NCBI GenBank assembly: GCA_965217865.1
Contig: CBDCJO010000001.1
Coordinates: forward strand, 544,001 to 608,000
Source: Candidatus Latescibacterota bacterium
GTDB taxonomy: Bacteria; Latescibacterota; UBA2968; SICM01
DNA length: 64,000 nucleotides
Direction: 5' to 3'
The translations under genes and the position numbers were made by a program. The notes beneath the pieces are model-generated. The model was not told the origin of the DNA. It did not search any database and saw nothing but the letters and a program-made list of their open reading frames with translations. The first letter of the stretch is position 1. Each line of letters starts with the position of its first letter. Shown here one piece after another: positions 29,330 through 39,011 of this stretch.

Positions 29330-29890
29330 GAGCAGAGTATAGCCGAACCCCGGGTTATTCGCAAATTTTTTTCACAATAACTCTCTCTCACAGGAGGCTC
29401 AGGATGGGAAGATATTCGAAACAGGCCTGGAAAGGCAAGCATCTTTTTATGGGTATCGATCTTCATCGCAAAAGTTGGCACGTGACAATTCGTTCCGAAG
29501 ACGGTTTGGTCCTTTTTTCCAACAACATTGGTGGCCGTTGGGAGGACCTGGAGCGATTGTTGTCCCGGTTCTCCGACGCGGGACAGATCTCGGTCGTCTA
29601 CGAGGCAGGGTATTTTGGGTTTTGGGTATATGATCGTCTGATCGACTATGGGGTAGATGCGCGGGTTACGCCGCCTCATATGATTTCTCAACGCTCTGGT
29701 AGTCGGGTGAAAAATGATCGTCTGGATAGCGGGAAGTTAGCCGGGTTCCTACAGTCTGGCCATTTGGAGGCCGTATATGTTCCGACTTTGGAAGAGCGAG
29801 CGCACCGGCAAGTGTCCAGACGTCGTCGTCAGTCCATCGGCAATCGGGTTCGGGTTCAAAACCGGATCAAAGCAGAGCTTCGGGTGAATG
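29330..29890 (+). pseudogene. IS110-family transposase 5' fragment with short left end
   Basis: ATG 29404 after AGGAGG; MGIDLHRK, YEAG, KNDRLDS (DEDD RuvC-like motifs); breaks after RIKAELRVNG. Confidence 0.85.
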
Positions 29891-30360
29891 GAACGACACG
29901 ATGGTGTCCGCCGCCTGGGCGGCGAGGGTGGCCTGCCGGAGGTCGAGCCGGGCGGAGAAGCTGTCGCGCCCGTGGGAGGCCATGCCATACCTGTTGCGGA
30001 GTTCGCACAAGCCCTGGATGGTCTGGAGCAGACCCCGGATCGTCTTTTCCACCGATTCGCGCGCCTTCGCCGGGTCGGGATGGTTACGCGGCAACAGGGC
30101 CAGGCGGTTGGTCGTCTCCTTCAAGAGCTTCGGTGCATCCCAGTTGGGGTCCGCCGGCTGGCCGATATCGGCGAGCACCGTCTTGCAGACGGATTCGACC
30201 AGCGTCTTGGAAAGATCGAAGGCGAAGTCCGGCACGCTCTCCAACGCACTCTCGATGGCATGGATCTGCTGATCGATAGCCTCGGCGAGCGGACCGTCGA
30301 GTACCGCCGCGCGAGCGCCGACCATCTGAAAGCGAGCGCGAGCTGAACGGGATCTCGACC
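29890..30360 (-). pseudogene. Abortive-infection C-terminal (Abi_C-like) domain fragment
   Basis: DLSKTLVESVCKTVL...GLCELRNRYGMASHGRD...ATLAAQAADTIVSF; both ends fused to IS pieces. Confidence 0.75.
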
Positions 30361-30986
30361 GGCGTGGTTTACCGGCACCCCTGTTCGTCACGACCGACGG
30401 AGCCGGTGGGCTTATCCAGACCATCGACCAGATGTGGCCGAAGAGTCTGCGCGGGACGCTGCTGGGTGCATCGGATGCGCAACTTTGCAGCCAAGGTGCC
30501 CGATGCGCGCTGGCATGAGATCAAGCCGTATCTGGTGATGATTCGTGACGCCCCGGATCTTCAGGCCGGCCAAAGTGCGGTGCGAGAGTTTCTGGAGAAG
30601 TTCAGCAAGGAGTTCCCCGGTCTGTGCAAGTGTCTCACGGAGGACCTCGAAGCTCTCCTCGCACACCTCCAGCTTCCCTGGCGACTCCGGAAGTTCGCCC
30701 GCACCACCAACCTGATCGAACGCAGCTTTGTCGAGGAACGCCGCCGAACCAAAACATTGCCGCGATTCTTCTCCGAAAAGAGTTGCCTGAAGCTCGTCTA
30801 TGCTGTTCTCATCCGTGCCGCTGCCAGGTGGCAGAATATCAACATCACGTCCACCGAACTGCTCCAGCTCCAGCTGCTCTATGAGGAACGACAGATCGCA
30901 CCACCGGCTGAAATGGTAGCCGTTGCGGAACCTCACTGGACCTCCAGTTGAAGGTTTGCATTTTGCAGGACGCTTAAGACTTGACC
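30361..30986 (+). pseudogene. IS256-family transposase 3' fragment with right end
   Basis: VTTDGAGGL, frameshift, RCWVHRMRN, RTTNLIERSF; probable terminal sequence TTTTGCAG...GACTTGACC. Confidence 0.85.
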
Positions 30987-32440
30987 CAATCCTGTCCAGA
31001 CGTTGAACACTTTTCATAGAATTGGATAGCCTTTTCGTATATTTCTTCGCGGTGCTTTGCCAAACTGTGTGTATCGTCGCCAAAGACGATTAGCGTACAG
31101 TTGCCGCCAGAGTCATTAATGAGTTTCTCGACGTGCTGCATTTCGCTTGTGGTCGCGACGGTATCAAGCGCGCCATGAAACAGCAGGATTGGCCTCTTTA
31201 TATGGGTAGCATGTGTCAATACGGATCGCTCAACTAATGCTTTCTCGCGTTCCCTTGGACTGCTTGGAAGGATTCTATCATGATGGAGGCGCAAGACTCG
31301 AAGACTTGTGCAAGTACACGTGGAGATCCCACCTACGAATGGTGAAGATGCATCTGCCAGGGCAAGGAGACTTAGAAACCCGCCATAGCTATTACCGAAC
31401 AGAGCGATTCTCCTGCCTGTACTAAAGTGTTGCTGCCAGTAGATTCCACAGTCTAATACATCCTGAACGTCTGCGACCCCGGCGACCCCGGTGTTCGCTC
31501 GATCGAGGTCCTCGCCGAAGCCGGTAGAGCCCCTATAAGCCACGCGCACAATCTCGAATCCCTGGCGAAGCAGCCCTAAAGCCCATGAGTCATTTCTATC
31601 GAGACTGCCTCCAGGCCCACCATGCACATACAGAACAGCGAGCTCTCGTGGAGACGGCGGAACCAACCGCTGTACTGGAAGAGCTAAACCATCCGAAGCA
31701 GGAACCGTAAATTCCTCAAGCCTAAAACTCGGTACGGGTTCGGTATGCTCAGCTACGACAGTGCATCCTTCAGATTCTTTCCAGCGGTAGACCTTATGGT
31801 CTGTTCCAAGAAAACAGACGGTATCGTTGTCGGCTCTGAAGGCGATTTGATACCAAGTCAGGTTCTTCGCCACGCTAACCCCGGAATCCAATCTGATGCG
31901 TGAATCTACGCGGCCTACGGGAAACTGCACCCAAACAAGCTCATCGGGTTTGACGCAGAGAAGCCTGTTCGTCGAGTTTGAAAATGCACCTTCTTTCACA
32001 GGCCCATCTTCATAGATCCACCCGGAACCTCGGCCCGTAAGATCTACAACGTGAACGGTCCCTTCTTTCTCGTCGGACACGTGAAGTGCAAACCAGCTTT
32101 CGTCACGTGACCAGGGGAATCGACCAAATCGGTGACCATTTGACTCGGGCAGGAGCGAGGATATTCTTTGACGTTGAAGATCAAATAAATGCACTTTCTT
32201 AGGCTTGTTAAGCTCCTCCAGGTTTTGCCGATGAAATGCAATCAGGTCACCGGATGGGGACCAATTTGGAAACCTGTCCACACTGTCCTTCGATGCGGTC
32301 AATCTATCAAGTTTGCCGCTATCCAATGTGAGGTGAAAAATGTCAGGTGGCCGTTTATTCAATTGCTCGGTACTGTGCTTTTCGTAGGCAGAAAACACGA
32401 GGCTTGTGCCGTTTGGCGACCACTGGCTGAACCCCGCAGG
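30974..32440 (-). CDS. S9 (prolyl oligopeptidase-like) peptidase with TolB-like propeller; 5' end replaced
   Basis: PNWSPSG repeat, HGGPG, YRGSTGFG, nucleophile GNSYGG, HGALD, terminal His; lower GC. The annotated N-terminus is antisense DUF4011 sequence. Confidence 0.8.
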   Translation of the reverse strand, partial: PAGFSQWSPNGTSLVFSAYEKHSTEQLNKRPPDIFHLTLDSGKLDRLTASKDSVDRFPNWSPSGDLIAFHRQNLEELNKPKKVHLFDLQRQRISSLLPESNGHRFGRFPWSRDESWFALHVSDEKEGTVHVVDLTGRGSGWIYEDGPVKEGAFSNSTNRLLCVKPDELVWVQFPVGRVDSRIRLDSGVSVAKNLTWYQIAFRADNDTVCFLGTDHKVYRWKESEGCTVVAEHTEPVPSFRLEEFTVPASDGLALPVQRLVPPSPRELAVLYVHGGPGGSLDRNDSWALGLLRQGFEIVRVAYRGSTGFGEDLDRANTGVAGVADVQDVLDCGIYWQQHFSTGRRIALFGNSYGGFLSLLALADASSPFVGGISTCTCTSLRVLRLHHDRILPSSPREREKALVERSVLTHATHIKRPILLFHGALDTVATTSEMQHVEKLINDSGGNCTLIVFGDDTHSLAKHREEIYEKAIQFYEKCSTSGQDWVKS

Positions 32441-32825
32441 CGTCCGGTCGGGACGACGAAACCGGCTCGCTCGATGTCGATCAGGAGGTTCCGGAAGAAC
32501 TGCTTTCACTCATGGCTGAGGCCGAGGACGATCCCGACTGGTTGGCGAAGCGTCACCTCGACAACAAGCTCCAAACGCCATACGACACGAGCCGCCTCGA
32601 CATCCTCCTCAGGAACACCTACCGCCACGCCCACCTCTCTCTTGAAGAACAGGGCGTCAACATCCTCTACCTGGCCCTGGGAACGCTCAACTGGTATGAA
32701 TCGAAGTCGAGCGACATCCAGCTGATGGCGCCCCTGGTTATGGTCCCGGTAGAGCTGTCGCGGGAAAGCGCACGGGCTCGCTTCAAGGTGCGTTGGACGG
32801 GCGAGGAGATCGACGGGAACTCGGA
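32440..32825 (+). pseudogene. DUF4011 helicase (Hhe-like defence protein) internal fragment
   Basis: LQTP...LEEQGVNILYLALGTLNWYE...APLVMVPVEL, typical of DUF4011. Confidence 0.8.
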
Positions 32826-32838
32826 TACGGTCAACCGC

Positions 32839-33387
32839 CTACGGTATCGGCGAAGAATGCGTCTCGCCATCCCGGCCTCTTATCTCTCCTAATTGTTCGA
32901 GTGCATCCCGGTGCAGCTTTCGCAAGTTCGAGGCTATCTCCGCGATTTTCCCCGTCGTCACGTGCACCTCAACGACGATGCTGTCCCTTCTGGGTGTCTG
33001 CTGCACCATCTCCCACGCTTCCCATCGGCCTCCATTTGTTAGCACTGCGTAACGGGCGCCGATTTCCGTTGCGTATCCAGACGCCTGCCTTCGATCCGTG
33101 TCCTTCGGCCCTGAATCTGGAGGCTTGGCCTCCACAACGGCAAGGAATGCACCTGTCGACGACACGAGAACGTAGTCCACCTTGTTCCCGTTGGCACGAT
33201 GCTCTAGCCGGACCCGCGCCGGGTCTTTGACGTCCCAACCCAATGCGTTCAACACCCCGTCGATAACCAGCGCCCTCGTCGCCGTCTCATTCCCGTGGAG
33301 GTACTCGTAATGCTCGGTCAGAACCTTCCGAGCTTCCTTGATGCTCTCCTCAAGCAGGGTCCCCTTGCCATCCTCCAGCTCAGCCAA
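32839..33387 (-). CDS. Stand-alone HsdR_N-like PD-(D/E)XK endonuclease
   Basis: NETATR...LGWD...VDYVL...VVEAK...QASGYA...LTNGGRW; RBS AGGGAG; 182 aa. Confidence 0.8.
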   Translation of the reverse strand: MAELEDGKGTLLEESIKEARKVLTEHYEYLHGNETATRALVIDGVLNALGWDVKDPARVRLEHRANGNKVDYVLVSSTGAFLAVVEAKPPDSGPKDTDRRQASGYATEIGARYAVLTNGGRWEAWEMVQQTPRRDSIVVEVHVTTGKIAEIASNLRKLHRDALEQLGEIRGRDGETHSSPIP

Positions 33388-33409
33388 TGCTCACTCCCTA
33401 ACCCTTCAT

Positions 33410-33726
33410 GAAAGTATTTGAACTTGGATACCCCTTCCTTTGGAAGGGGAGAAGAAGTTTAGCTTGCCGAAGGCAAGCTAAAAGGGTGTCTTATCGTGTT
33501 CAGACCACTGAGACACAAATCGACTCAGGAGGCATACGATGGGACTCCGACGGACCAGTCACGCAGTCTATGATAGCCAGTATCCTCTGGTATGGGCACC
33601 GAAGTACCGGAAATGGATTCTGCGAGGTGACCTTCGAGCGTATGTGGGCAAGCTGTTTCATCGGATAGCAGAAGATTTTGGGGGTGGGAGTGGTTAATGC
33701 CCCGCCCTTTGGGCGGGGTGGTTTAC
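33410..33726 (+). mobile_element. Internally deleted, non-autonomous derivative of the IS200 at 10698-11302 (317 bp)
   Basis: Near-identical left end and first ~47 tnpA codons, then a jump to the right-end hairpin at a TTTGG microhomology; same TCAT target and GGTTTAC end. Confidence 0.92.
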
Positions 33727-33758
33727 TCGCACGCGCGTCCCTGTAGTCGCCCGACGGT

Positions 33759-34196
33759 CTACTTGCCACGACGTTCCCATGCCCGGCCCAAGGCCCGAAT
33801 ACTTTCCCAGATCGATCTCCATGAGCTAGGCTGGGTGTCTCTCCTGGGCACTTCGCCTGTTTCCGTTTGGTAGTAGCTGTTGCGTCTGGTCCAGGCCTTT
33901 TGCCGCACCAGCGCGATTTCAGCTTCCGAAAAGCCGCGCGCCCACCGGACGATTCCTTCATCGATCCAGTAGTGTGACCTGCACGAAAAACTCCAGTTCC
34001 CGATGGACGGCTCCAGGGAGATCGTTCTCCCGTCATAGGTGAGCCTCCACTCGACGGGGCCAAGAGGGGTCACCACCTCCTCCCCGCACCCGCACGCACA
34101 CCGGTGGACCACCGTGCCGAAACGCATCGACACATACAGAACACCGTCATCCAGCTGTTCCGGTATGTGATCCACGAATTCGTTGCGCAATCTCAT
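33759..34196 (-). CDS. DUF6527 family Cys/His-rich protein
   Basis: FVDHIPEQLDDGVLYVS, HRCACGCG, PSIGNWSFSCRSHYWI; start overlaps the ThiF stop. Confidence 0.85.
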   Translation of the reverse strand: MRLRNEFVDHIPEQLDDGVLYVSMRFGTVVHRCACGCGEEVVTPLGPVEWRLTYDGRTISLEPSIGNWSFSCRSHYWIDEGIVRWARGFSEAEIALVRQKAWTRRNSYYQTETGEVPRRDTQPSSWRSIWESIRALGRAWERRGK

Positions 34197-35383
34197 TGGC
34201 TATCGTCAGCCTGCCCCAGCATCCTGTTGCTCATGTGATTTCCGTCGATCGTGTAAGTGCTCCTGTCCTCTTTGCCAAGGTCCATGTAAAACCCCCGGTG
34301 CTTCTTCCACCGGATTACCGCGAGGGCCGCATTCAGCGCGTTCAGTTCCACGATCTGCACGTTCCTCTCGTACTCGCCGACGTCCCGCAATCCGCCCTCA
34401 CCGCGTCGTACCGCCGAGCTCTTCGGCGTCTCACAGAAGCTCGTTCTCACGACCCCTACCAGCTTGTCGTCCGTCTTCTCGATGCCCATTCCCACGTCGA
34501 CGAACGGCACTCCCATCCGGTCCAGTGTCGGCAGCAGCCACTGCCTAGTTTCGTTGTCGTCGACGGCGACAAACACGAAATCGAGGTCGCCAAGCACATT
34601 GACGTTATCGGCCTCCACATCGAATTCGTGCGCGACGACGCCGCTCCTTATCTTCGCGTACCGTTCGCTGTACAGTTGAGCCTTGGTCGGTCTCTTCTCG
34701 AGCTCCTCGGCTGTCGTCGGACCGGGCGCGCGGAACGCGTTGTGCTGCTCGAACCGGTCGCCGTCGAACAGATGGATCTCCGCGACGCGTGTCTTGCTGA
34801 CGTAATCCAGAATGTACGATCCCGTACCTCCGAGCCCGATTATGCCGATCCTGTCTCCGGACAGTCTCTCGTTCAACCGGGTTATCCCAGCGCGGCTCGA
34901 CGCAGTTTCCATGAACACGAAAGGGTCGTTCGGGTCTGCCGACAGCACCAGTTTCCCCGCGCAGGCTATCGCTCCGGGGTCTATTCGTTTTGCACACCGT
35001 CCAATCACCTGCGCGTAGTGCGTCAGCTTGTGATGGTAATCCTCGTACTTCCCCGCCACCGGCCTTGCCGAGAAGTAATGGTCGACCCATAGGCCTTCGG
35101 CGAGCTCTTGGCGTTGGCTGCTGTTCCGCAGAGCCTCGATCGGCGCACCGCGGTCGTCGCAGGGGTACTCGCCCGCAAAGTACATCGTGTGATCTGGCGG
35201 CGGCCCCGTTTCCGAACCGTCGACGGCTAGGGGACAGACGAGCTGACCGTACTTCACGGTTCGCTCGCTTGTAACGTACGGGACGCGATGCAGCACCAAA
35301 TGCCCGGAGCGGACCTCTATCTCGTAGCCGTCCTCGACGAGTCGCTTAAGGTCCTCCCTACGACTGATCAGTTCTTGTGACAT
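34193..35383 (-). CDS. ThiF/E1-family adenylyltransferase with N-terminal DUF6791 (E2-like) domain
   Basis: N-terminal VPYV...FAGEYPC...YHHKLTHY; ThiF motifs GLGGTGS, DGD...HNAFRAPG, FVAVD, FVDVGMG, LNALNAALAVIRWKK. Confidence 0.88.
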   Translation of the reverse strand: MSQELISRREDLKRLVEDGYEIEVRSGHLVLHRVPYVTSERTVKYGQLVCPLAVDGSETGPPPDHTMYFAGEYPCDDRGAPIEALRNSSQRQELAEGLWVDHYFSARPVAGKYEDYHHKLTHYAQVIGRCAKRIDPGAIACAGKLVLSADPNDPFVFMETASSRAGITRLNERLSGDRIGIIGLGGTGSYILDYVSKTRVAEIHLFDGDRFEQHNAFRAPGPTTAEELEKRPTKAQLYSERYAKIRSGVVAHEFDVEADNVNVLGDLDFVFVAVDDNETRQWLLPTLDRMGVPFVDVGMGIEKTDDKLVGVVRTSFCETPKSSAVRRGEGGLRDVGEYERNVQIVELNALNAALAVIRWKKHRGFYMDLGKEDRSTYTIDGNHMSNRMLGQADDSQ

Positions 35384-35630
35384 TGATAATCGTTCCGTCC
35401 CGCACCTTCAGCCTTTGCCCCTCGTCTAGCTCTCCTTCGGGTATTCGGCTGCCGGCCTCCCGGAACGTGATCGTGAACACGATCTGCGGGCCCCTGGCCG
35501 GATCGTCGAATGCAAGGTCCACTAGCTCGTCGAACGACAGTTCGTCACGCTCGACCTGCCTTTGCCGCCCATTGACCGTTATCAAGAACGTCTTGTCGTC
35601 CAATCGGTCTAGTTGGTTTTCCTTACTCAC
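35358..35630 (-). CDS. Multiubiquitin-domain (Ubl) protein
   Basis: ITVNGRQ...LSFDELVDLAF...LKVRDGTIINVTRTDQS; GTG start after GGAGGAG. Confidence 0.85.
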   Translation of the reverse strand: MSKENQLDRLDDKTFLITVNGRQRQVERDELSFDELVDLAFDDPARGPQIVFTITFREAGSRIPEGELDEGQRLKVRDGTIINVTRTDQS

Positions 35631-35644
35631 GAGATTCTCCTCCT

Positions 35645-35945
35645 ATGCTCAGTCGTGTCCTTAGAGATAGTTTGAAAACGTTCGATGCCTGGCTTCATAA
35701 AACTCACGACCTCGTCCGGCTCGACAAATTTTGTTTCTCCGCCACAGAATTTCTGGAAGAGTTTGTGTGTGTCCGGGGTCTTTCCCACCAGCGCGAGAAT
35801 CTTGATACCCGGAAGATCTGGCTTAGACACGCGTTTTCGCTATCGGTCGATGCCGGATAATGTAGATGTCCGAGGGCGGCTTCTCGACAGCAGGATTCTC
35901 TTTGGCGAATGCCCCAACGCCGAGTTCTTCGATGTTCGGTTCCAT
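35645..35945 (-). pseudogene. Degraded multiubiquitin-domain (Ubl) gene
   Basis: ATG 35945 after GGAGGAGG; reconstructed MEPNIEE...YIIRIDR*RKRVSKPDLPGIKILALVGKTPDTHKLFQKF...PGIERFQTISKDTTE, with one frameshift, one in-frame TAG and a damaged end. Confidence 0.7.
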
Positions 35946-36109
35946 TAGATTAACCTCCTCCTAGTTGCCCAGGATCACAACTTAAGAGGGTGGCGTCCGA
36001 CAGACCAGAACACGAAGCCTTGGTCAGGTAGTACAGATTTCTGAGAATCTGAATCAAACATCGTACATCTCCTTTGAGAAAGGGCTGAAAGTTTGCGCTT
36101 TGTTTCCGA

Positions 36110-36190
36110 GACATTAACCCTTATATTATAACCTACCGAATTATGGAGAAGAGCCCTAATAATATAACCCAATTAATTATATTGTCAAGG
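36110..36190. promoter_or_regulatory. Divergent promoter region with candidate XRE operators
   Basis: AT-rich; minus-strand TTGACA (36183-36188) with TATATT/TATTAT 16-18 bp away; related motifs ATTAACCC, TATAACC and ATATAACCC repeated. Confidence 0.55.
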
Positions 36191-36203
36191 GGAAAAATTG
36201 GCC

Positions 36204-36533
36204 ATGTCAGAATTTGGAGAGAGGCTGAGGAGAGCAAGGCAGAATAAGGGGATGCTGCAGGAAGACTTAGCACAGGCAATGGGGCTAACTCAGGCATCGA
36301 TTTCCCAGTTCGAGAAGGGACAAAGGACACCCACCCCGGAAAATATCCGTAAATTAGCTCAAATACTGGGGGTGAAGGAGGAGGACCTAGCAGGCAAAGA
36401 TAAGGGGAATTTCGAAAGGGCATTGTTAATGCGAAATATGCGAGATTTGTCCCCTGGATCTCTCAGTAGGATCAACGAGTATGTGGAGCTGATAAAGGAG
36501 AGTGAAAGAGCAAGAAGACGGAGAAAGAGATGA
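36204..36533 (+). CDS. XRE-family HTH regulator (CapH/ImmR-like)
   Basis: FGERLRRAR...QEDLA...ISQFEKGQRTP...LAQILGV. Confidence 0.92.
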   Translation: MSEFGERLRRARQNKGMLQEDLAQAMGLTQASISQFEKGQRTPTPENIRKLAQILGVKEEDLAGKDKGNFERALLMRNMRDLSPGSLSRINEYVELIKESERARRRRKR

Positions 36534-37405
36534 TTTTGAGACGTACAATAGCGGCCTACGCCTCTCAGCTACGTGAAAACATGGGAATCGGTGAAAACGC
36601 CGCCATTGGACACCTCGTTCATCATATCAAAGAAGCGGGATATGAGTATCTTGAGGAATCCTTTGGTGATGAATTTTCAGGATTTTCGCAATCCCTTGGT
36701 GGAGGCAAGTATCTTATAGGATTCAATCGTGAGCACCTCTGGAGCATCAAATTTCAAAGATTCACTTTGTCTCACGAATTAGGGCACCTTACTATCCCGG
36801 AGCACCGCAGGATATTGGACAACACAGGCTTGCATCGGTCCAAGAGTGAGTTTCAATCCCAAGATCCGATTGAGCGGGAGGCGGATTACTTCGCCATATG
36901 CTTTCTGACTCCGAGGAAGTCCTTTCAAGATGCTATGAAACACAAGGAATACACAAAAGACACCATCTTTGGGCTCTCCGAAAAGTTTGGGATATCGGCC
37001 TATGCTACTATCCTTCGGTTCATAGAACTGACAGACCAGTCTTGCACTTTGATCGTGAGTAACAGCACTGGAATGATTGAATACGAAAGACGGTCCAACC
37101 GGATGAAGGAATCCTGCCAACAGAACTTTTTGGCTGGAAAGAAAATTAAGGAGACAACTCTTACTTTTGACTATATCAAGGGCCGGAAAGGGGAGAACAG
37201 CTGTACCGTCTCTCTTCGGGAATGGTTTGAGGATCTGCCTGAAGAGATTGAAATCGATGCGACCGAATCTGTAATCGACCTGGGATATAACAACAAGTAT
37301 CTGACCTTGTTGACTCCACATGTTACGGATGTGGACGAATATAGTAGGGACTGGGAATCACCAAGATCATTCCCAAAACACGGAGGTCGACCTAGTACCT
37401 ATTGA
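36530..37405 (+). CDS. ImmA/IrrE-family metallopeptidase (CapP-like)
   Basis: RFTLSHELGH (HExxH), EREADYFA, HTH-like segment LSEKFGISAYA, C-terminal extension; coupled to the XRE gene (ATGA overlap). Confidence 0.92.
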   Translation: MILRRTIAAYASQLRENMGIGENAAIGHLVHHIKEAGYEYLEESFGDEFSGFSQSLGGGKYLIGFNREHLWSIKFQRFTLSHELGHLTIPEHRRILDNTGLHRSKSEFQSQDPIEREADYFAICFLTPRKSFQDAMKHKEYTKDTIFGLSEKFGISAYATILRFIELTDQSCTLIVSNSTGMIEYERRSNRMKESCQQNFLAGKKIKETTLTFDYIKGRKGENSCTVSLREWFEDLPEEIEIDATESVIDLGYNNKYLTLLTPHVTDVDEYSRDWESPRSFPKHGGRPSTY

Positions 37406-38618
37406 CATTTAAAACGAGCGTGCCGAATGTTTGTTATCTCCCCGATCCGTTCGCTGTGGGAGGAGGATCGGCATGCCCAACAGGAAGTACATCGTCCGTC
37501 CAAGTTGCGATGAGCGGAAGCACTTGCAGGATCTGGTAAGCAAAGGCCGGACACAGGCCTACCGGATCCGACACGCACACATTCTGATGAAGGCCGACGC
37601 GGATGGCCCTTGCTGGGGCGACGAAGCCATCGCCCAAGCGTTTTCGTGCCACAGACGCACCGCGGAAGGCATTCGCAAGCGCTTTGTGGTCCAAGGGCTC
37701 GACGCAGCCCTTGAGCGGAAGAAGCGGGAACGACCGCCCATCGAACCGATTCTGGACGGCGAAAAGGAAGCTCGCTTGATCGCCCTGGCCTGCAGCCAGC
37801 CGCCGAAAGGTCGTAGCCGCTGGACGCTGGAGTTGCTCGCTGACAAGCTGGTTGAACTCAACATCGTCGAGAGCATCTCCTATCGGACCGTGCAACGGGC
37901 GCTCAAAAAAACGAACTCAAGCCCCATCTGAAAACGTGCTGGGTGATTCCGCCCAGGGAAAACGCCGCATTCGTAGCTTGCATGGAGAATCTTCTGGATC
38001 TGTATCACCGGCCCTATGATCCGGAAAGGCCGCTTTTGGCCATGGACGAACACCCCGTGCAGTTGACCGGAGAGACACGCATCCCGGTCCCGGAAAAACC
38101 GGGGCATCCCCGACGTCACGACTATGAGTATGAGCGTAACGGCACAGCCGCGAATTTCTTGTTCCTCGAGCCCCTGACCGGACGTCGGAAGGTCCACGTC
38201 CGGGAACGCAGGACCGCCGTAGACTGGGCTTACGAGATCCAGGAACTGCTTGAGGTGGACTACCCGGATGCGCAAGTCGTGGTGCTGGTCTGCGACAACC
38301 TCAGCACTCACACCATCGCATCTCTCTACAAGGCCTTCCCACCCGAAAAGGCCCGTTCTCTAGCCAAACGCCTCGAATTGCACTACACGCCCAAGCACGG
38401 TAGCTGGCTCAATATCGCCGAGATCGAACTGAGCGTCCTTGCCAGACAATGCCTGCACAGCCGCATTCCTGACCTGCAGACCCTCACCAACGAAGTGGAG
38501 GCCTGGAAATGTGATCGAAACGAGAAACACAGAACCCTTGATTGGCAGTTCACGACCACCGACGCCCGCATCAAACTGAAGAAGCTATATCCCAAGTTTT
38601 AGGTGTCATGGTGTACTA
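37393..38618 (+). mobile_element. IS630-family element, complete; transposase 37473-38602 split by a probable programmed -1 frameshift
   Basis: Ends CTAGTACCTATTGACA / TGTCATGGTGTACTAG; A7 slippery site at 37905-37911; MDE, DNLSTH, YTPKHGSWLNIAEIE. Confidence 0.93.
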
Positions 38619-38783
38619 GGTAGAGGGAGGAACCCCGGACAGGCGATTTCACAAAGTCAGTCACTAAACACTTTCGGATTAGCAGATAAGGGCTTGAAGG
38701 TATGGGGGGTGTCGTTGGAAACCCGGCAATGATTGAGGTTTCAGAACACAGAGCACTTATAGAGGGGAGAGGTCATCGCGTAC

Positions 38784-39011
38784 TTGTTGCCTGATGTCAT
38801 CAATTCCGCAGGTCTGGCTCTTGATATTGTCGCCGTTATCCTTTTGTTTTTCTATGGCTTGCCGGCGGAAGTTAGGAAGGAACAGATGATGACCTGGGGC
38901 GAGGATGCTGAGCAGGTGAGGAAGTGGAACCGCAACAAGAAAATTTCCCGCTTGGCACTCGCTCTTCTTGTTTTCGGCTTTTTGCTTCAACTCGTTAGTA
39001 ACTGGATGTGA
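38784..39011 (+). CDS. Small two-TM hypothetical protein
   Basis: 75 aa, two hydrophobic helices (GLALDIVAVILLFFYGLP; LALALLVFGFLLQLV). Confidence 0.6.
   Translation: MLPDVINSAGLALDIVAVILLFFYGLPAEVRKEQMMTWGEDAEQVRKWNRNKKISRLALALLVFGFLLQLVSNWM

Follow-up and report, generated by a model that had tools for sequence, protein, structure and literature searches.

What does a three-gene operon built around a ubiquitin-like protein (Ubl) do in a Candidatus Latescibacterota bacterium, and how did it come to lie next to a repressor and a peptidase of the CapH/CapP kind? The operon is found in a 64,000-nucleotide (nt) stretch of contig CBDCJO010000001.1, here called the window, and a preliminary description had taken it for a damage-inducible defence system with a chemistry of its own. 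Feature calls on the window, together with PADLOC matches and a Pfam profile scan of nine of its proteins, identify it as a Type II Bub operon (bubA, bubBD and bubE) that is intact and ordinary. It is predicted to conjugate a serine-ended tag that BubE likely removes, was likely swapped in behind a CapH/CapP-like switch and would be induced by DNA damage, a reading that is probable as a whole. The five genes stand where they had been described, and coordinates and Pfam matches agree with the overlapping Ubl, DUF6791-ThiF and DUF6527 genes and with a divergent XRE gene followed by an HExxH peptidase gene. The features are the following (aa, amino acids; E, expectation value):

36530..37405, plus strand: capP-like zinc metallopeptidase of the ImmA/IrrE family (PADLOC capP, E 1.4e-39; Pfam Peptidase_M78)
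36198..36533, plus strand: capH-like XRE repressor (PADLOC capH best match, E 7.2e-17; Pfam HTH_3)
36118..36190, minus strand: AT-rich promoter/operator (TTGACA-16-TATATT at 36188-36161, with inverted and direct repeats)
35649..35947, minus strand: relic of the 5' half of a Type I Bub bubA(B) gene, by its likeness to the Type I Ubl of genome G029
35358..35630, minus strand: bubA, a single beta-grasp Ubl of 90 aa ending in TDQS (Multi_ubiq, E 7.6e-14)
34193..35383, minus strand: bubBD, a fusion of DUF6791 (E2-like) and ThiF (E1) of 396 aa (Pfam)
33759..34196, minus strand: bubE, a DUF6527 serine protease of 145 aa (Pfam, E 6e-26)

Gene content and catalytic residues

Type II Bub is defined in the preprint of Ye et al. 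(bioRxiv 10.1101/2024.11.21.623953), whose text and supplements are the source of the Bub background below unless another is named, by BubA, an E2-E1 fusion (BubBD) and BubE (DUF6527), with JAB typically lacking; its catalogue holds 544 Bub operons, 168 of them adjoined by CapH+CapP, as in the window. A Ubl, an E2-E1 fusion and a DUF6527 gene form one operon in the window, with overlaps of 26 nt (bubA/bubBD) and 4 nt (bubBD/bubE), NCBIfam PRK06153.1-4 scores above its cut-off, and Pfam matched neither JAB nor Prok-E2_E in the nine proteins scanned. The earlier assignment to the Bub class of conjugation operons agrees with this content, and the missing JAB, which had been singled out, is indeed missing but typical of the type.

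Among known systems, the Type II Bub of E. coli ZDHYS365 shares with the window the gene order and content, the absence of JAB, the E1 tyrosine, the E2 serine and histidine, the adenylation arginine, the BubE Ser-His pair with four cysteines and the TDxS end of the Ubl (TDKS in 9CD2). It differs in that the window Ubl has a single domain, without the Ubl3 filament domains, and that the window has an arginine at an "invariant" lysine, a Type I relic and a short HsdR-N-like gene. Bil (Types I and II) and Cap2 of Type II CBASS are also bacterial E1/E2 conjugation systems, and Cap2 is likewise an E2-E1 fusion that gave weak PADLOC E1-E2 matches, confined to the ThiF part. Unlike the window operon, both work through cysteine thioesters with a JAB peptidase and have demonstrated antiphage activity, whereas the window has no CD-NTase or JAB; Bil has, in addition, separate E1, E2, JAB and Ubl genes in place of a fusion.

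The chemistry of Type II Bub, for which the preliminary description knew of no solved mechanism, had already been published and proceeds through tyrosine and serine oxyesters: in ZDHYS365, mutants of S106, R219 and Y342 lose a putative BubA-BubA conjugate that the K108 mutant retains. The window residues were set against these four by eye (Table S2 and Fig S5 of that preprint), because the E. coli locus compared here (L027) belongs to another strain. When the window BubBD was aligned with the best 150 of 2023 representative matches, H65 and R218 were found in all 150 relatives, Y338 of the E1 crossover loop in 149 (the remaining one has a gap) and S105 in 148. The two other representatives (within P0121-P0270) carry cysteine for the E2 catalytic serine and are natural candidates for a thioester version. 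Q343, N348 and D296 are near-invariant as well and may be what touches the Ser90 hydroxyl of BubA. Position 107, two residues after the E2 serine, is arginine in the window protein, lysine in 129/150 relatives and arginine in 6/150, so that the lysine called invariant in the paper is not invariant among these relatives; by analogy, Arg107 is probably tolerated, since the E. coli K108 mutant keeps its product.

BubE has been described as a protease acting through a serine and a histidine, for which a C4 zinc site is predicted, its activity having been assayed on a Type I BubE only. S64, H75 and C72 of the window protein recur in 98 of 99 matches (one not covered), and C33, C35 and C37 in all 99. 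The three bub genes are under purifying selection, with ratios of non-synonymous to synonymous substitution (dN/dS) against six relatives of 0.06-0.15 for bubA, 0.08-0.19 for bubBD and 0.13-0.39 for bubE. An AlphaFold2 model of BubBD (predicted local distance difference test score, 91.6) is confident except near the tyrosine loop, where residues 329-333 are flexible and of low confidence. Within the window's phylum DUF6791 is patchy, being present in 10 of 168 genomes and in neither of the two from the same family.

The serine terminus of BubA

The Ubl does end in TDQS instead of glycine, as had been noticed, and sequence comparison indicates that this ending is normal for a Type II BubA. The sole PDB match is the BubA of E. 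coli ZDHYS365 (9CD2), which is active in conjugation and ends in TDKS; Table S2 of Ye et al. lists the same sequence. A C-terminal serine is present in all 120 close homologs listed, of 303 found, and 108 of these 120, from a search limited by length, are 90 aa long. A local oddity, a truncation or a frameshift is ruled out by the end of 9CD2 and by these uniformly Ser-ended homologs.

The comparison was extended to 111 loci with BubBD relatives. Of these, 80 are the best of 426 metagenome matches, 8 come from viral contigs, 9 from genomes of the same phylum as the window and 4 from annotated records; the other 10 were left once L011 had been set aside as spurious. A Ubl lies upstream in 104 of the 111 and ends in serine in all 104, a count that covers frames ending at most 90 nt from the bubBD start, in loci picked by likeness to the window BubBD, with a seed profile built from five Ser-ended Ubls; the seven loci in which no Ubl was detected are partial or short.

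In 103 of these 104 loci the Ubl gene overlaps the start of bubBD by 26 nt. Within this fixed overlap the same bases encode the last strand of the Ubl and the first residues of BubBD; the word "overlap" does not occur in the searched supplements of Ye et al. or main text of Gong et al. (bioRxiv 10.1101/2024.11.21.623966). It is unlikely that serine is kept merely through the overlap: the overlapped BubBD residues vary (among 95 distinct gene ends, position 7 is Ser, Asn, Asp or Ala and position 8 is Arg, His, Leu or Pro) while the Ubl serine is constant, and divergent copies with a 4-nt overlap are also Ser-ended. All the C-terminal serine codons are TCN, and therefore codon-family switching adds no support.

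Genome G000 has three near-identical copies of a divergent Type II Bub-like operon with an overlap of 4 nt in place of 26 (C2:183167-185028, locus L156; C2:~2458000; C2:~3539000). They contain an 82-aa Multi_ubiq protein ending in PEHVS (seen in two), a 393-aa ThiF fusion without a DUF6791 match and a DUF6527 gene, with a co-directional Peptidase_M78 gene upstream. A solitary DUF6527 piece lies near C2:526000 of the same genome.

The Ser-ended tag appears to be a trait unremarked in the texts of the Ye and Gong preprints. The expression "C-terminal serine" has no occurrence in the main text or the searched supplements of Ye et al., whose final journal version may discuss the serine end; the sole mention of "serine" in the Gong et al. 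text concerns BubE, the consulted text of Iyer et al. 2006 (PMC1779556) has nothing on the Ubl terminus, and a literature search on the idea of a Ser-ended tag returned nothing relevant.

A Type I relic and a probable cassette swap

The space between the promoter and the Ubl gene is not wholly intergenic: it holds a second, broken Multi_ubiq gene at 35627-35947, which the preliminary description had missed. It begins with a strong ribosome-binding site (RBS) and an ATG at 35947, carries an extra base near 35860 and a nonsense codon at 35840-35842, and is cut inside a glutamate codon directly before the glycine where Type I precursors are cleaved. Over 283 base pairs (bp; 35649-35931) it has 78% nt identity to a Ubl gene of G029, which is a Type I bubA because Prok-E2_E, JAB-ThiF and DUF6527 genes follow it; a 247-aa Ubl-E2 fusion (P0271, a fused BubAB) is 69% identical to the G029 Ubl. 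In the G029 operon (L021:6831-7566) BubA and BubB occupy separate overlapping frames; the frame shifts at a run of T that directly follows the TEG motif, which could be a natural split or an assembly slip. Type I Bub (Citrobacter RHBSTW-00271 BubAB, BubCD and BubE) resembles the window operon in its oxyester logic and BubE family and is the source class of the relic, but differs in that its Gly-ended Ubl is made fused to the E2 and is freed by a JAB-E1 fusion; of such a system the window keeps the broken bubA half alone.

The likeness to the G029 bubA stops at 35649, from which point the window DNA matches eight close Type II cassettes at 76-95% nt identity, and theirs stops at or before the same position. 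The records of these cassettes are labelled Marinacidobacterales, Alphaproteobacteria, Azotimanducaceae, Gemmatimonadetes, Vicinamibacteria, Poriferihabitaceae, Foliamicus and Bacteroidota. A leader of ~220 bp is common to three of them (L001, L002 and L005), and the window retains only its last 21 bp. There is also a step in GC content, from 56-60% in the cassette to 46-51% in the relic, capH and capP, and the window capH/capP genes gave no tblastn match in any of the seven close relatives with 5 kb upstream.

An assembly error at the relic is ruled out, because independent contigs assembled in three studies show the two lesions again, those of X4, X5 and X10 among them. A contig of X2 covers 35478-35897 with zero differences, and one of X7, from another study, covers the 1189 bp of 35617-36805 without a gap and with 11 substitutions. 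X4, X7 and X8 also have contigs that exit at 35649 into an L001-like leader.

As judged from these alignments, the locus is a chimera of a Type II cassette joined to a Type I relic at 35649, and the cassette likely replaced an older Type I Bub operon behind the CapH/CapP-like switch. The simplest history would be that a Type II cassette gained by horizontal transfer overwrote a Type I Bub driven by CapH/CapP, after which the orphaned Type I bubA decayed.

The CapH/CapP-like switch and its promoter

PADLOC, which the preliminary description had proposed as a check, returned capH and capP as the best matches. As in known CapH+CapP pairs, a helix-turn-helix repressor and an HExxH peptidase of CapP length stand beside the operon promoter. 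The capP profile match covers residues 33-262 of a protein that has H82-E83-x-x-H86 and E115 and whose sole PDB match is CapP (7T5T, E 1.7e-8); it lacks the cysteine of the cysteine switch, which only 134 of 408 CBASS CapP proteins have, according to the published counts consulted. CapP proteins are further characterised by a GAF domain at the C-terminus. For capH, ATG 36204 is the likelier start, the orthologs in G018 and G014 beginning at the same MSEFGE.

These two genomes hold the nearest capH/capP orthologs among 40 related genomes (66-72% aa identity), where the pair heads cargo unrelated to Bub. In G018 (L022:7740-10689) it is followed by two tandem pairs of 76-aa and 125-aa proteins and a 490-aa ThiF fusion; the 76-aa protein, ending in KPTPVA, is Ubl-like by eye and the 125-aa protein E2-like by eye, neither with a Pfam match, and the locus is possibly another non-Gly (Ala-ended) conjugation system. 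In G014 (L023:8074-9962) its cargo comprises a 130-aa gene without annotation together with a gene of the caspase-domain kind and a TIR gene.

The AT-rich region with repeated motifs was also recovered: the 88 bp 5' of capH (36110-36197) have 31% GC. A sigma-70 match of 11/12 at 36188-36161 faces the bub operon. An inverted repeat of 14 nt overlaps this match, and on its flanks lies a direct repeat of 27 nt (36118/36154, 21/27 identical) that was equalled by 1 of 500 block shuffles. The core of this promoter/operator region is conserved 5' of capH in G018 and in G014 too, and CapH would bind there. No terminator-like site was found on the minus strand from the promoter to bubA. CapP-like genes occur in 17 of the 63 Type II loci having at least 2.5 kb upstream. 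The switch thus described earlier stands as to its likeness to CapH/CapP, but it was most likely gained via the cassette swap and is not the native regulator of this cassette.

Proposed mechanism and alternative explanations

It has been reported that ssDNA (single-stranded DNA) stimulates cleavage of CapH by CapP and so releases the promoter (Lau et al., bioRxiv 10.1101/2022.04.27.489752; Calloji et al., bioRxiv 10.64898/2026.05.16.725639). By analogy, on DNA damage CapP would cut CapH and the promoter would be freed, and transcription would cross the ~300-bp relic and continue into the three bub genes. BubA would be adenylated by BubBD at Ser90, which supposes activation of a C-terminal serine, and would then be carried as a Tyr338 and afterwards a Ser105 oxyester and be attached to target proteins, as extrapolated from the E. 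coli ortholog; BubE likely removes it from the targets again. Bub might in this way serve a stress or an anti-phage response.

Several points weigh against this reading. Ye et al. report no phage protection by any Bub operon tested, which leaves the earlier view of the locus as a defence system unproven, and a 2026 paper (PMC13373217) repeats that absence; the literature search returned no later paper on Bub function. In the Ye preprint, Type II conjugation is seen only in vitro, as the putative BubA-BubA product, and DUF6791 is taken to be E2-like from a structure prediction; the BubBD profile gave no match against one Prok-E2_E protein. The first frame of the relic ends after 40 codons, and ~195 untranslated nt precede bubA, with a possible polar effect. 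For the direction of the swap there is a single Type I reference locus. Finally, the close relative L004 has an unrelated ImmA/IrrE-type Peptidase_M78 gene 2.6-3.3 kb upstream, so that regulators of this type are not foreign to the cassette lineage.

A serious contender, somewhat short of an even chance, is that the same chemistry serves a general response to DNA damage or stress instead of phage defence, an explanation that concerns the role only and is compatible with the one preferred here. The failure of every tested Bub to protect against phage speaks for it, and a global stress function is raised by the authors themselves (PMC13373217); the defence-like neighbours in the window (a DUF4011 fragment and an HsdR-N-like gene) and the occurrence of CapH/CapP in immune operons (Lau et al.) speak for defence.

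It is unlikely that the join is accidental, a Type II cassette having landed in a dying Type I operon where it is poorly expressed or outside CapH/CapP control. The relic is decaying, the native leader is gone, insertion sequence (IS) elements lie on both sides (37431 onward; 33410-33727) and the capH/capP orthologs in G018 and G014 head unrelated cargo, which speaks for an accident. The promoter, operator motifs, capH and capP are nevertheless intact and conserved, the promoter-to-bubA strand is free of terminator-like sites, bubA retains its RBS, the same join recurs in the X7 contig of another study at the small divergence given above, and the frequency of CapP-like genes near Type II loci also argues against it.

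A new chemistry, with the cysteine of FAGEYPC (C75 of BubBD) or the DUF6527 cysteine cluster as thioester carrier, as the preliminary description had supposed, is very improbable and was dropped: although cysteine is what most relatives have at position 75 (98/150), E. coli BubBD has a cysteine too and two relatives have one in place of the E2 serine, C75 is lacking in 52/150 while S105, H65 and Y338 are near invariant, the tyrosine and serine mutants of the ortholog lose conjugation, and the BubE cysteines form a predicted zinc site beside the Ser-His dyad on which activity depends. Least credible of all is that the relic pieces belong with the 90-aa Ubl to a single multi-domain BubA, divided through an error of assembly or read by recoding; both match Multi_ubiq, their frames abut (4-nt overlap, 35627-35630) and multi-domain BubA is common, but the lesions recur as described, the relic pieces match Type I BubA, and the 90-aa form, the prevailing length in the length-limited homolog search, stands alone with its own RBS in eight close loci.

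The downstream nuclease gene and the flanks

Beyond bubE and at the borders of the locus lie:

33410..33727, strand not assigned: internally deleted IS200-family element of 318 bp, inserted after TTCAT and carrying a hairpin
32839..33387, minus strand: short HsdR-N-like nuclease-domain gene of PD-(D/E)XK type (HSDR_N_2, E 3.3e-7)
32512-32892, converging on the HsdR-N-like gene: DUF4011 fragment of a truncated defence helicase, matching the N-terminal region of Hhe, ProA and PDC-S37

An HSDR_N_2 gene (165-182 aa) lies directly 3' of bubE in seven of the eight close relatives, and also in G133 and G153. Of the 72 loci with sufficient downstream DNA, 7 have it and the others do not, so that the nuclease link is confined to one lineage. 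The HsdR-N-like gene has a dN/dS of 0.17-0.54, a weaker constraint than that on bubA and bubBD, and it may be a partner of the operon or a passenger. In the window it is separated from bubE by the 318-bp element, which we take to be of the IS200 family, longer copies encoding a TnpA-like open reading frame; it is missing from the same site in L001, two X7 contigs show the site empty, and elsewhere in the genome its left end is matched 36 times and its right end 33 times, counted over the whole genome. A terminator-like hairpin inside it (33482-33458) could stop read-through.

Transposase-like frames lie on either side of the locus (37431-38602 and 29700-30951), and the ends of the 37431 element recur at other genome sites. 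Nothing in Rfam matched within 32000-39000, and tblastn against a phage collection gave no match.

A bolder proposal, quite unlikely as it stands, is that a four-gene mobile Type II Bub cassette (Ser tag, E2-E1, protease and PD-(D/E)XK nuclease), built to activate a C-terminal serine, crosses distant bacterial groups and plugs into resident CapH/CapP promoters, in the window in place of a Type I Bub, the nuclease being its cognate effector or a conjugation target.

Implications

As a system, the operon adds little, hundreds of Bub operons having been catalogued and their chemistry published. The serine terminus of its tag implies that the E1 pocket and the protease are adapted to an end other than Gly. 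The locus records what appears to be a base-precise exchange of ubiquitin-like operons behind a promoter predicted to respond to damage, and it illustrates concretely how modular defence islands are. The nuclease-domain gene that travels with the cassette is a candidate partner of the Bub pathway and, if the nuclease were indeed its effector or target, it would provide the first handle on what Bub does.

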